Source: Crocosphaera subtropica ATCC 51142
Lineage (GTDB): Bacteria > Cyanobacteriota > Cyanobacteriia > Cyanobacteriales > Microcystaceae
Reading direction: 5' to 3'
Assembly (NCBI RefSeq): GCF_000017845.1
Contig: NC_010546.1
Span: 3,600,001 to 3,632,000 of the forward strand
DNA length: 32,000 nt
A program made the translations under genes and the position numbers. A model generated the notes under the pieces. The model was not told the origin of the DNA. It worked only from the letters and a program-made list of their open reading frames with translations, and made no database searches. Positions 5,051 through 10,981 of the stretch are shown here, piece by piece; the first letter of the stretch is position 1; each line of letters begins with the position of its first letter.

Positions 5051-5575
5051 TTAAGCAAAAGCAAAGTCAGATGAACTCAAATCAGTAGAATCAATGCGTC
5101 GTAAGATAGCTAAATCTTGTCCGAGAGCATTGATGGTTGTATCTAAACCATTTTGAGTTAACATCAAATCGTCAAAACTGAGATCCGTTGCACCAAAGCC
5201 GATCACATCTTCCCCGATGGTAAAGTCAGTGATGGTATTCGCTTCAGTGGGTAAGGCTTCTGCATCAGTAACAATCCAGAATTGATCCATTCCAGAACCA
5301 CCAGTAACAACATTGTTACCTTCACCAGAACCCAGGAATAAGATATCGTCTCCTGAACCTGCAATGATGCGGTTATTGCTACCGGCAAAAATGATGTCAT
5401 CACCGCTACCCAAGTCAATGCGACTGCGATCGCCACCAGGGGCAAAGGTAACATCAACAAAGTCATCACCAGAACCTGCAAAGAGAAGCTGATTATCACC
5501 AATAAATCCACTATCTCCAGGATCTTCGGTGTCGAAGACATCAGCACCAGCACTACCCCGTACCATACTGGGAAC
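5051..5575 (-). repeat. C-terminal RTX/secretion cassette, copy 2 (paralogue of 1917-2440)
   Basis: See copy 1. It ends ...[13 protein letters not shown], whereas copy 1 ends ...NSTDLTAADFVFA. Confidence 0.9.
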
Positions 5576-8500: not shown

Positions 8501-10981
8501 AGTGGTGGTAGGGTTAACATTAATGAAAGGAACTTGAGGTTCCGTATCTCCTAAATTTGGGTCACTGGTCAAATTACCAGAAGGACGGCTATAGGGGGCA
8601 AATTGAAAGACCTGCATTCCCCCTGCATCACTATCGGCAGCAGTAATGACTAAGGTATTAGGGTCTTGGGTATTGACATAGTCCATCGCTACTCCGATGG
8701 CAGCATCAGCCCGGCGCATGGCTTCGATGGTTCCAGGGGCATTGTTGCTGTTACCAAAGTTATCCGTTCCCTCTTCTTCTAAGACTGCAAAAAACCCATC
8801 GGGGTCATTTTTGAGGATTTTTAAGGAAGCCTCCAACATTTCCGCCACAGTGGGGGCTGTTGCTACATACAGAGGACTGGGATTATCTGTATTCAGTCCT
8901 AAGACTTCTTCCCTTGTAGCATCAAAGGTAGCATCGGCCGCAAACACCCCTAAGATTTTTTCGGGTAGGGTGTCTCCATTGACCACCTCATCCATTTGTT
9001 CTTCGGTATATACCACCGTATAACCCAAAGATTCAGCTAACTCAATTAAATTGATGCTAGGACGGCGTTCGGGGCGAGTTTCAGAGGCATCAATTTCGGC
9101 GGTAACGTGGAAACCAGTGGTGCCGATGGGTAGCATATAGAGTTCCCCACCCCCCATGATCACGTTGGTTCCGGAGCGAATGACCTGTTCGATGATTTCT
9201 GCGTACTTATCTCTAGCCCGAATATTGTCCCCATCTCGGTTGGTGGTTTTGGCAGCAAAAGCAGCACTTCCGGGTTCGGCTAAATGACCAGATTGGATCA
9301 AGGCGGTTGCTTTTCCAGCGGCGATCGCTTCTTCTAAAATGGTCATGCCCCGTTTTCCGGAGGCTGGAGTCACTTGAGAATTATCTCCATTGAGGCCAAA
9401 GGACTCATTAAACACTTTTACCCCATTAGCATGGGTCACGGCACCAGCATTAGAAGTTCCAGTTAATTGGTCTTCCATGTGGCCCAGATAAACCCCGGCG
9501 TTGGTCATGTTATCCCAGTTGAGGCGACCATCGGGACCGTGATCAATATTCCGTAGGGCCATGTAATGGGAAGGACTGGTACCGTCAGGGTGAATAAAGA
9601 TGACGTTCCCTGTGTTTTTGGTAGGAGTGGGGGCTGGGGTAGGGGCGGAATTACGAGCTTCTAATTCTACCTCGAATAAGGTTTCGTACATCAACTCGTA
9701 AATTCCTGTGTTATCTACCGTTGCAGGAAGTTTATCGGCATTGACCCCGTGAGCTTTGGCCACGATGGAACCGCTAAAGTCAGGGGTTCCAGCCCAAGCG
9801 ATACCAAAGTTAAACACATCCCCATCCACATCAGGGGCAGCTACAAAGGGGTCTGTATCGGCTCCAGTCTGCCCATCGAGGGGAACGGGTCGAGATTCGG
9901 TGGTAGGGTTATTATTAATCGTACCGACAGTTTGATCAGGATTACGGGGATCTCGTACTTGTAACCCACCGGCATCACTATCGGCGGCGGTAATAATTAA
10001 GCTGTTTTCGTACTTTTCATAGAATTCTAAAGCAACTCCAATGGCTGCATCACCGCGACGGGTTCCTTCTAACGTACCGGCTGCATTGTTATTGTTGCCA
10101 AAGTTATCGCTTCCTTCTTCTTCAACTACCGTAAATGACCCATTCTGGAAGTTAGGATGACTTTCGGCTAACTTTTGGGTCACTTCTAGCATTTCTGCTA
10201 CTGTAGGAGCCGTTTCTACATAAAGGGGTAATCCTCTTTCGGCTAACACTTCCTCTGGGCGATCGTTAAAGGTGTGAATGGGGGCAAATACCCCTAATAC
10301 TTTAGTGGGAGGTGTGGGGTATGTAGCGGGATCGAGCAACTCATACAGTTGCTCTTCAGTGTAGACAACGGTATAGCCTAAGCTTTCCGCCAGTTCGATT
10401 AGATTCTCGGTAGGACGACGTAAAGGGTTGGTGCTTAACGCATCTAATTCGGCTGCTGTGCCATGAAAGCCATCGGTTCCAATAGGTAAGAGGTTGAGTT
10501 CACCACCTCCCATAATAAAGTCCACTCCAGACTCGATCACTTGTTTGGCAATATCAGCTAACCGTTGCCGAGGAGGAATGCGCTGGCCATCAACTTCTAT
10601 TTCTCCCACTTGGGCTACAAAAGCAGCCGTTCCAGGTTCGTAAATGGCCCCAGATTGAACTAAAGCGGTTACCTTATTGGCTTCAACCGCTTCCTGCATA
10701 ATGGTTTTGCCTACATTGCCCGATAGAGGAACAATGGGGGTGTTACCTTCTTCGAGTCCGAAGGATTCTGCGTACACTTTTGCCCCGGTTGCATGGGTGA
10801 CAGCCCCCCCATTAGAAGTACCACCCAGTTGATCTTCCATATGACCGAGATAGACACCGGCGTGAGAAAGTTTATCCCAGTTGAGGTGGCCATCGGGTCC
10901 GTGATCCACAAATCGAGCAAAGCCGTAGTGAGAGGGGCTTGTGCCATCAGGATGAATAAAGATGACATGATTATTGTTCAT
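5051..10981 (-). CDS. 1976-aa multi-domain secreted-type phosphoesterase: two tandem atypical AP-like domains, a phytase-like propeller interrupted by a GDPD domain, a Calx-beta-like domain and an RTX cassette
   Basis: It is a single uninterrupted ORF. The domain motifs are listed in the sub-features below. There is no signal peptide, because the sequence [15 protein letters not shown] runs straight into the first catalytic domain. Confidence 0.9.
   Translation of the reverse strand: [1976 protein letters not shown]
5590..5990 (-). other. Calx-beta-like Ca-binding beta-sandwich
   Basis: The segment is [27 protein letters not shown]...[32 protein letters not shown]. It shows the G(E)T..i.v..v.D...EgdEt pattern. 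Confidence 0.5.
6040..6615 (-). other. Phytase-like region, C-terminal part (continuation after the GDPD insert)
   Basis: The motifs are [28 protein letters not shown] and [13 protein letters not shown]. The last is the DNNF-type terminal motif that also appears in the gene 4 phytase-like domain as VVSDNNFNDS. Confidence 0.45.
6620..7700 (-). other. Glycerophosphodiester phosphodiesterase (GDPD, GlpQ-like) domain
   Basis: [19 protein letters not shown]...[24 protein letters not shown] closely parallels the E. coli GlpQ segment [15 protein letters not shown]...DYLEQDLVMTKDD.LVVLHD. The C-terminal segment VHPYTFRDE...[11 protein letters not shown] is also typical of the family. Confidence 0.85.
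7705..8245 (-). other. Phytase-like (esterase-like activity of phytase) region, N-terminal part
   Basis: The motifs are [22 protein letters not shown] and [19 protein letters not shown]. They resemble the GGISGL...LSDD / EG..... pattern of the phytase-like family. Confidence 0.5.
8255..9615 (-). other. AP-superfamily (PhoA-like, atypical) domain B, an internal tandem paralogue of domain A
   Basis: The same motif series is repeated after a PTPAPTP linker: [58 protein letters not shown] and [18 protein letters not shown]. Confidence 0.65.
9650..10981 (-). other. AP-superfamily (PhoA-like, atypical) domain A
   Basis: [14 protein letters not shown] aligns with the GDGMG region. [17 protein letters not shown] aligns with the E. 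coli PhoA segment [31 protein letters not shown] and [10 protein letters not shown] sit in the positions of the metal-ligand segments. Confidence 0.65.

Follow-up and report, generated by a model that had tools for sequence, protein, structure and literature searches.

Can one enzyme domain of a giant cyanobacterial protein be spliced into another, and what would such a protein do for the cell? The question is raised by a gene for a 1976-amino-acid (aa) protein of Crocosphaera subtropica ATCC 51142, which lies in the 32,000-nucleotide (nt) stretch of DNA analysed here (contig NC_010546.1, positions 3,600,001 to 3,632,000; hereafter the window). A sequence-only reading had proposed that this protein carries a GlpQ-like GDPD domain inserted in a phytase-like propeller, behind two tandem alkaline phosphatase (AP)-like domains and ahead of a Calx-beta-like domain and an RTX tail. 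We found the open reading frame (ORF) exactly as that reading had described it (Table 1); its ATG is the first possible start after the upstream stop codon, and the frame is open throughout. All quoted motifs are present in the translation: FSGVQF (aa 958), WFLSDNGYG (aa 970), IWIGEEFGP (aa 1053; nt 7799–7825), IAHRGASG (aa 1096; nt 7673–7696), a further motif of 10 residues (aa 1133), VFSDNPD (aa 1443; nt 6635–6655), and ANDNNYPFS (aa 1629; nt 6071–6097). The nucleotide positions estimated for the domain borders (7705, 6620–7700, and about 6040) fall within about 10–60 nt of the actual ones (7730, 6632–7690, and 6071–6097). Profile and model evidence shows what is predicted to be one approximately six-bladed propeller of family PF13449 with a complete GDPD barrel spliced into one of its loops.

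Against Pfam, PF03009 matched the protein over its complete profile with 128.7 bits (threshold 23.6), and PF13449, which Pfam describes as a "repeated domain", matched with 168.9 bits in two collinear stretches. The HMMER envelopes place the GDPD domain between these stretches. The report of PF13449 as two stretches, like that description, would agree with a linear string of domains, in which the flanks of the GDPD domain are two independent domains or do not belong to PF13449. When scanned alone, the flanks matched complementary, non-overlapping parts of the profile over the residues given in Table 1, namely positions 1–111 for the N-terminal flank (77.7 bits) and 117–284 for the C-terminal flank (104.3 bits), and deletion of the GDPD domain in silico merged them into a single match to positions 1–284 with 182.5 bits. 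One profile is therefore shared out between the two flanks, with the break at 111/117. Judging from the strand pattern, moreover, the N part comprises only some two blades and could not form a propeller by itself.

Structure prediction agrees with the profile evidence. Compared with the PDB by sequence, the module matched GDPD entries only, none of them covering the propeller, and Foldseek with the AlphaFold2 model of the full module (aa 915–1665; predicted local distance difference test score, pLDDT, 77.4; predicted template modelling score, pTM, 0.76) returned almost exclusively GDPD structures, with no beta-propeller among the matches listed. Because these matches say nothing about the propeller, the spliced sequence was modelled as well (382 residues, alignment of 37 unedited relatives). 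The two PF13449 halves, whose joint folding the sequence-only reading had suggested checking in this way, were modelled as a single propeller with an all-beta pattern, a pLDDT of 87.9 and a pTM of 0.90, and the full-module model has the same strand pattern. Foldseek of the spliced model against the PDB gave 425 matches at E ≤ 0.001. Each of the 50 matches listed is a beta-propeller, aligned over 304–462 columns and thus mostly over the length of the model, and the highest template modelling (TM) scores among them belong to six-bladed hydrolases (DFPase, luciferin-regenerating enzyme, and xylonolactonase). An N-terminal strand upstream of the Pfam envelope, module residues 3–11 in both models and with a pLDDT block of 94 in the spliced one, may close the propeller ring together with the last blade.

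The window holds its own control for an unsplit domain. The 2056-aa protein encoded divergently next to the 1976-aa gene contains an uninterrupted PF13449 domain (aa 409–722; 301 bits) that is collinear with the spliced sequence, and a BLASTP segment crosses the splice point without a break, where the neighbour has the residues FNTLP-VPSKFLP. The GDPD insert sits between "...FNTLNG" and "VSSPDNP...", and the junction residues T173, L174, and G176 (module numbering), followed by S/P-x-N-P, are conserved. In the models, the insertion appears to follow about the second blade, in the loop between approximately blades 2 and 3. The termini of a TIM barrel lie close together, which suits such a barrel to insertion in a loop.

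Relatives with an empty insertion site complete this picture. An HMMER scan of 1.84 billion representative sequences returned 6435 relatives, the best 149 of which were mapped; in about 40 of these the two propeller halves are contiguous, separated by 2–8 residues at the junction vs. 368 in the 1976-aa protein. These uninterrupted proteins are 50–67% identical to, and collinear with, both halves of the 1976-aa protein and lack the GDPD insert. With N and C for the propeller parts and G for the GDPD domain, matched architectures exist in both states, namely EEP-N-C-tail (P0285) vs. EEP-N-G-C-tail (P0254) and N-C-PhoD (P0280) vs. N-G-C-PhoD (P0274), and stand-alone N-C propellers of 400–450 aa occur as well (e.g., P0293 and P0291). 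Like the neighbour's domain, these intact propellers belong to the same family as the split one. We therefore rejected the reading of two independent flanks on the grounds of profile complementarity, the spliced model with its Foldseek matches, and the empty-site homologues, and leave it next to no probability; no line of evidence pointed to flanks that are independent or not phytase-like. The comparison shows instead that the nested cassette arose by insertion of a GDPD domain into an otherwise continuous propeller.

Further variants of this architecture were observed among the relatives. Un-nested GDPD domains are found in the orders N-C-G and PHYL-G-BPP. The junction of one protein without a GDPD domain, P0286, still bears "GFFDDFPGTGDLVSDQ", with which a GDPD domain ends at its C-terminus; this remnant suggests that the domain was deleted secondarily. 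In P0100 and P0101, another loop of the propeller N part holds an additional insert of about 180 aa.

The sequence-only reading had called this topology unusual, which does not hold within the family. With the module as query, 3868 homologous proteins were obtained at E ≤ 1e-10; in the best 120 of these the order N-GDPD(-GDPD)-C is universal (120/120), with two tandem GDPD domains in the one loop in 103 and a single one in 17, and all the named entries are cyanobacterial. The gene of one relative already appears in the precomputed Pfam listing of the sequence collection as Phytase-like, GDPD, Phytase-like. Nesting is thus the norm of a large, catalogued cyanobacterial family and is not specific to the 1976-aa gene. 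Other members, such as a protein of C. watsonii WH 0402 (P0095) and proteins of 1100–1315 aa from Leptolyngbya and Calothrix, are 49–66% identical to it and share the split propeller, the GlpQ-type GDPD domain, the insertion point between TLNG and ...SPDNP and, often, an RTX-like tail. Most of them have two nested GDPD domains and no AP domains (103 of the best 120), whereas the 1976-aa protein has one GDPD domain and two AP-like domains upstream. Across the family, the nested cassette is joined to EEP, PhoD, phytase, PhoX, and one or two AP domains in giant architectures of up to 3014 aa. The literature on PF13449, phytase-like esterase activity, GDPD and beta-propeller combinations in cyanobacteria, and Crocosphaera phosphorus yielded remarks on domain content for Nodularia only and no account of the nesting.

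The nested GDPD domain retains the residues of an active enzyme. H1098, R1099, E1133, D1135, H1148, E1266, and K1268 (H184, R185, E219, D221, H234, E352, and K354 in module numbering) are invariant in 18 homologues, and we take them, from published structures, to represent the catalytic His-Arg pair, the Glu/Asp/Glu ligands of Ca2+, the second His, and the Lys. The top Foldseek match of the domain is E. coli GlpQ (1t8q; TM 0.81–0.82, E about 4e-21), followed by 8cwp, 4r7o, and 5t9b. With the periplasmic GlpQ of E. coli (1t8q and 1ydy) it shares the TIM barrel, 31–32% identity, and the catalytic and Ca-ligand positions; GlpQ, however, is a free-standing enzyme with a signal peptide, whereas the domain described here interrupts another one. 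The NCBIfam model for GlpQ equivalogs, NF008354, scored 187 bits vs. a cut-off of 254, so we regard the domain as a family member and not as a GlpQ equivalog. No NCBIfam model reached its cut-off on the 1976-aa protein, the GlpQ, PhoA, and serralysin matches all being sub-threshold.

What the propeller itself contributes is less clear-cut. The term "phytase-like" stands as the name of the PF13449 family, whereas the implied link to true phytases does not: the 1976-aa protein has no match to PF02333 in Pfam at E ≤ 0.1, and the neighbour scores 262.7 bits with that profile at aa 763–1104. Beta-propeller phytases of PF02333 (the Bacillus PhyC type), which are Ca-dependent, and the split domain are both all-beta propellers, and the split domain keeps many invariant acidic residues. 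Even an intact paralog of 24% identity shares its invariant Asp, Glu, Arg, and Asn residues. Given such invariant acidic and basic residues in distant paralogs, together with the stand-alone propellers, we consider it somewhat likelier that the propeller is a catalytic, Ca-binding phosphoesterase than that its role is purely structural. The six-bladed hydrolases and lactonases with the top TM scores, all of them Ca-dependent, and the recurrence of PF13449 as a bead among the catalytic EEP, phytase, and PhoD domains point the same way. Against a catalytic role, no close solved structure was found for the PF13449 propeller (Foldseek against the PDB, TM ≤ 0.49), and the literature yielded no biochemically characterised member of the family and thus no activity for any of them. 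The propeller might alternatively be non-enzymatic, serving as a Ca-binding scaffold or as a platform for substrate binding and anchoring that brings the GDPD barrel or barrels to, for example, membranes, the cell surface, or polymeric glycerophosphate, so that the chemistry of the module would be GlpQ-like only. Many non-enzymatic propellers of the WD40 type are among the best structural matches, and the same loop accommodates either one or two GDPD domains. The topology also resembles that of the integrin alpha subunit, whose non-catalytic propeller is interrupted between blades 2 and 3 by the I domain, itself a complete alpha/beta domain (PMC11659783); that I domain is unrelated to the GDPD insert, having a vWA fold and not a TIM barrel and serving adhesion and not catalysis. 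We regard the scaffold as a serious but less favoured possibility.

The sequence-only reading was right about the two tandem AP-like domains, since PF00245 matched the protein twice (195.9 bits in all; domain 1 alone 83.8 bits); the domains share 56% identity. It had also expected monoesterase activity from them, which is not assured. In an alignment with an E. coli PhoA sequence whose key positions are those expected, the nucleophile Ser102 and the acidic ligands D51, E322, D327, and D369 are aligned and present in both AP-like domains. In place of the three Zn-ligand histidines His331, His370, and His412, both domains have Asn, Ser, and Thr, respectively, and in both a gap stands opposite Arg166; the changes H331N and H370S also appear in a comparison with the Vibrio AP 3e2d. 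The AP encoded by the neighbouring 755-aa gene keeps all three histidines and Arg166. These substitutions weigh against the reading of the protein as a combined monoesterase and diesterase, because the AP-like domains may not be classical monoesterases. They also favour a more radical reading, namely that the AP-like domains are catalytically dead relics, which would in effect leave the polypeptide with its diesterase function alone. This we consider improbable, as the nucleophile and the four acidic ligands are kept and the replacement motifs G(T/S)DNF(G/A)N and AADSDAG occur in both domains of essentially all 120 AP homologues. Most of them are stand-alone proteins of the order AP-AP-tail, about 1050–1140 aa long, that remain 75–88% identical across distant cyanobacteria (Nostocales, Leptolyngbya, and others). 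Conservation of the motifs in both domains over such distances indicates strong purifying selection, as is typical of a working site. As judged from these alignments, the AP-like domains are members of the AP superfamily and not canonical Zn-dependent PhoA enzymes; their metal site looks like a working, non-canonical site and not like a decayed one, and its residues suggest an all-oxygen, possibly Ca/Mg-type coordination. We found no description of a His-less tandem-AP family. Many AP-AP proteins without a GDPD domain (P0124, P0137, P0138, and others) are labelled "glycerophosphoryl diester phosphodiesterase" by JGI, probably through annotation transfer from fused proteins like the 1976-aa protein.

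Comparison with the closest genomes, those of Cyanothece sp. BG0011, the unicellular cyanobacterium SU3, and Crocosphaera, showed that the two ends of the protein differ in their history. The orthologs in SU3 (L001, 1929 aa; L001:4819-10608) and in Crocosphaera metagenome-assembled genomes (MAGs; L003, 2705 aa, and L004) have the same AP-AP-N-G-C-mid-tail order and the same neighbours as the 1976-aa gene. Between the C. subtropica and SU3 proteins, aa 900–1976 are 80–98% identical, whereas aa 1–900 are 31–73% and mostly about 50% identical; the AP-AP cassettes of the SU3 and MAG orthologs are only about 50% identical to that of the 1976-aa protein. The latter cassette is 75–88% identical to stand-alone AP-AP proteins of other, mostly filamentous cyanobacteria (e.g., Nostoc, Fischerella, and Leptolyngbya), and in GCA_002110465.1 an AP-AP gene of 88% identity lies near a nested-module gene and separate from it. 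Such a break in identity, the existence of the AP-AP protein as a separate nearby gene, and the lack of any record in a look-up of the exact 1976-aa protein would also be compatible with an assembly or frameshift artefact that unites two neighbouring genes. The frame is uninterrupted, however, and the AP-AP-N-G-C order recurs in SU3, in the Crocosphaera MAGs MO_167.B6 and MO_199.B6, in the database representative P0256, and in the Logan assembly P0127. The promoter region upstream is conserved (78%), and a natural cassette replacement by recombination accounts for the mosaic. An assembly chimera was therefore rejected, in view of the open frame, the same order in an independent genome and in MAGs, and the conserved promoter, and we hold an artefact of this kind to be very improbable. 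Since aa 1–900 have diverged while aa 900–1976 and the promoter are conserved, the AP-AP cassette appears to have been replaced by recombination, and the alignments identify the 1976-aa gene as a natural mosaic formed by cassette exchange at the boundary between AP and propeller.

The C-terminal part of the protein is described less well by known families. The mid region (about aa 1665–1805), called Calx-beta-like in the sequence-only reading, matched no Pfam family even at E ≤ 10, so that assignment has no support from hidden Markov models; the domain is 78–89% conserved in orthologs of the Crocosphaera group. The case for an RTX tail is marginal: degenerate GSGDD repeats are present and Peptidase_M10_C (PF08548) scored just above its cut-off (21.2 vs. 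20.7 bits), whereas HemolysinCabind (PF00353) remained below (22.4 vs. 23), and the NCBIfam serralysin model gave 30 vs. 500. The homologues end in the conserved ..F.FA motif. The DNA of the tail is duplicated, 5042–5575 being 84–87% identical at the nucleotide level to 1908–2441 at the end of the 755-aa AP gene. The tail of the 1976-aa gene also ends several otherwise unrelated large proteins of related genomes (L017–L019). There is no signal peptide, as the AP match begins at residue 6, the maximum 12-aa hydropathy is 0.28, and no N-terminal extension is possible. The protein contains 16.9% Asp plus Glu, 5% Lys plus Arg, and no Cys, and all three giant proteins of the locus have a similar composition (17% acidic and 5% basic residues, no Cys). 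From these features we infer that the tail serves as a type I secretion or Ca-binding module and that a type I system probably exports the protein by way of its C-terminus, which is acidic, contains repeats, and has no Cys. RTX profile scores at or below threshold speak against this, as does the absence of HlyB/HlyD-type genes from the window, which contains only a small generic ABC ATPase at 25874–26854.

The genes around the 1976-aa gene fit a function in phosphorus metabolism (Table 1). The divergent 2056-aa protein combines four different phosphoesterase-type domains with an RTX-like tail, and the arrangement of the AP gene, the 1976-aa gene, and the divergent 2056-aa gene is conserved in relatives. 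Because the gene is flanked by a canonical AP gene and an EEP-PF13449-phytase-PhoD gene, with this synteny kept in relatives, a role in phosphorus scavenging is indicated. Some relatives, including P0332, have the neighbour's string of domains with a GDPD domain between PF13449 and phytase.

Table 1. Features of the 1976-aa gene and its surroundings; positions count from the first nucleotide of the window.
Feature	Position	Strand	Remarks
Canonical alkaline phosphatase, 755 aa	1917..4184	-	His ligands present; same C-terminal tail
Terminator-like hairpin	5023..5041	-	Right after the stop codon
Whole coding sequence	5051..10981	-	1976 aa, ATG; AP-like, AP-like, propeller N part, GDPD, propeller C part, beta-rich domain, RTX-like tail
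C-terminal tail	5054..5581	-	Degenerate GSGDD repeats and terminal ..F.FA motif
Beta-rich mid domain	5582..5989	-	About aa 1665-1800; no Pfam match
PF13449 propeller, C part	6080..6574	-	aa 1470-1634 = profile 117-284; about four blades, ends ANDNNYPFS
GlpQ-like GDPD TIM barrel, complete	6632..7690	-	aa 1098-1450 = PF03009 1-244/244
PF13449 propeller, N part	7730..8125	-	aa 953-1084 = profile 1-111; about two blades
Propeller N-terminal beta-strand, predicted	8207..8233	-	aa 917-925, upstream of the Pfam envelope
AP-like domain 2	8588..9607	-	PF00245 aa 459-798; unit about aa 455-910
AP-like domain 1	9953..10966	-	PF00245 aa 6-343; repeat unit about aa 1-445
Divergent promoter region, shared with the 2056-aa gene	10982..11568	.	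587 nt, 78% conserved over four genomes
2056-aa protein	11569..17739	+	EEP, uninterrupted PF13449 (aa 409-722), PF02333, PhoD, tail

The divergent promoter region, which is unusually well conserved, was searched for signs of phosphate control. The cyanobacterial Pho-box consensus consists of three 8-bp PyTTAAPyPy(T/A) units with 11-bp spacing. A Pho-box-like triple repeat, CTTAAATT-ata-CTTATAAA-cct-CTTAACCT, lies at 11275–11301 on the plus strand, is conserved in four genomes, and is unique in the window, but its pattern was defined post hoc. The strict pattern gave one match with three mismatches at 11354–11383, which is not significant, since 17 of 100 shuffled sequences matched equally well. 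Three conserved hairpins (z = -2.85) lie in the leader of the 1976-aa gene (about 10982–11180, minus strand); they belong to no Rfam family, as Rfam gave no match over the whole window. Expression data come from Nodularia, in which nsp6490, whose domain content (two GlpQ plus phytase) has already been noted (2013 Nodularia genome paper; Voss et al.), is induced by log2 4.6–5.5 under phosphate limitation (PMC9846622). This gene probably belongs to the nested family, to which it is linked by domain content only; the clusters of four Nostocales matches showed no Nodularia member. This negative, like the non-significant strict match and the post hoc definition of the repeat, counts against phosphate control of the 1976-aa gene.

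The remainder of the window was surveyed as well. The spacer between the 1976-aa gene and the AP gene (4185–5050) comprises 866 nt, is AT-rich (GC 0.29), contains no ORF of at least 100 aa, and holds a longer inverted repeat at about 4976–5010 beside the hairpin at 5041–5023. Elsewhere, the window carries a photosystem II reaction-centre gene and, at 20351–22345 on the minus strand, a gene for a 664-aa bacterial protein-arginine deiminase (PAD_M plus PAD, 508 bits), a family best known from animals; this gene adjoins a sodium/glutamate symporter gene and a peptidase S51-like gene.

Taking these observations together, we find it quite probable that the 1976-aa protein is a nested multi-enzyme for scavenging organic phosphorus that is exported and controlled by phosphate stress. 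The protein, lacking a signal peptide, would be exported through its C-terminal tail and would act outside the cell as a Ca2+-dependent scavenger of organic phosphorus. Its GDPD domain would cleave glycerophosphodiesters to glycerol-3-phosphate and an alcohol in a Ca-dependent reaction, and phosphate would then be released from the monoester product by the AP-like domains of the same polypeptide and perhaps also by the propeller. Tethering of the domains would keep the intermediate from diffusing away and so reduce losses outside the cell. Expression would most likely be controlled by phosphate stress from the conserved divergent promoter. A bolder version, which we think unlikely, views the polypeptide as a zinc-free, Ca2+-based extracellular assembly line, in which the His-less AP-like domains represent an as yet undescribed Ca/Mg-type branch of APs and the GDPD domain and propeller form a physically coupled two-site unit, whether the diesterase passes its product on to a monoesterase site in the propeller or the two together make up a composite site for polymeric glycerophosphate. 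If this were true, marine diazotrophs would scavenge phosphorus without spending scarce zinc.

The nesting described here is neither a new principle nor specific to this gene; it is a well-supported case of a domain within a domain, and the His-less AP-like family and the chemistry of PF13449 are more promising leads than the nesting itself. They raise two concrete biochemical questions, namely the role of the PF13449 propeller and the metal of the His-less AP-like domains. The PF13449[GDPD] cassette represents one bead of a combinatorial set (EEP, PF13449, GDPD, phytase, PhoD, AP, and RTX-like tail) from which giant secreted cyanobacterial phosphatases are built. Such genes are usually counted as "glpQ/ugpQ" or "phytase", so that their domain content is missed, and some AP-AP proteins are labelled as diesterases; the architecture is thus relevant to how phosphorus-stress genomics and metatranscriptomics of marine diazotrophs are read.

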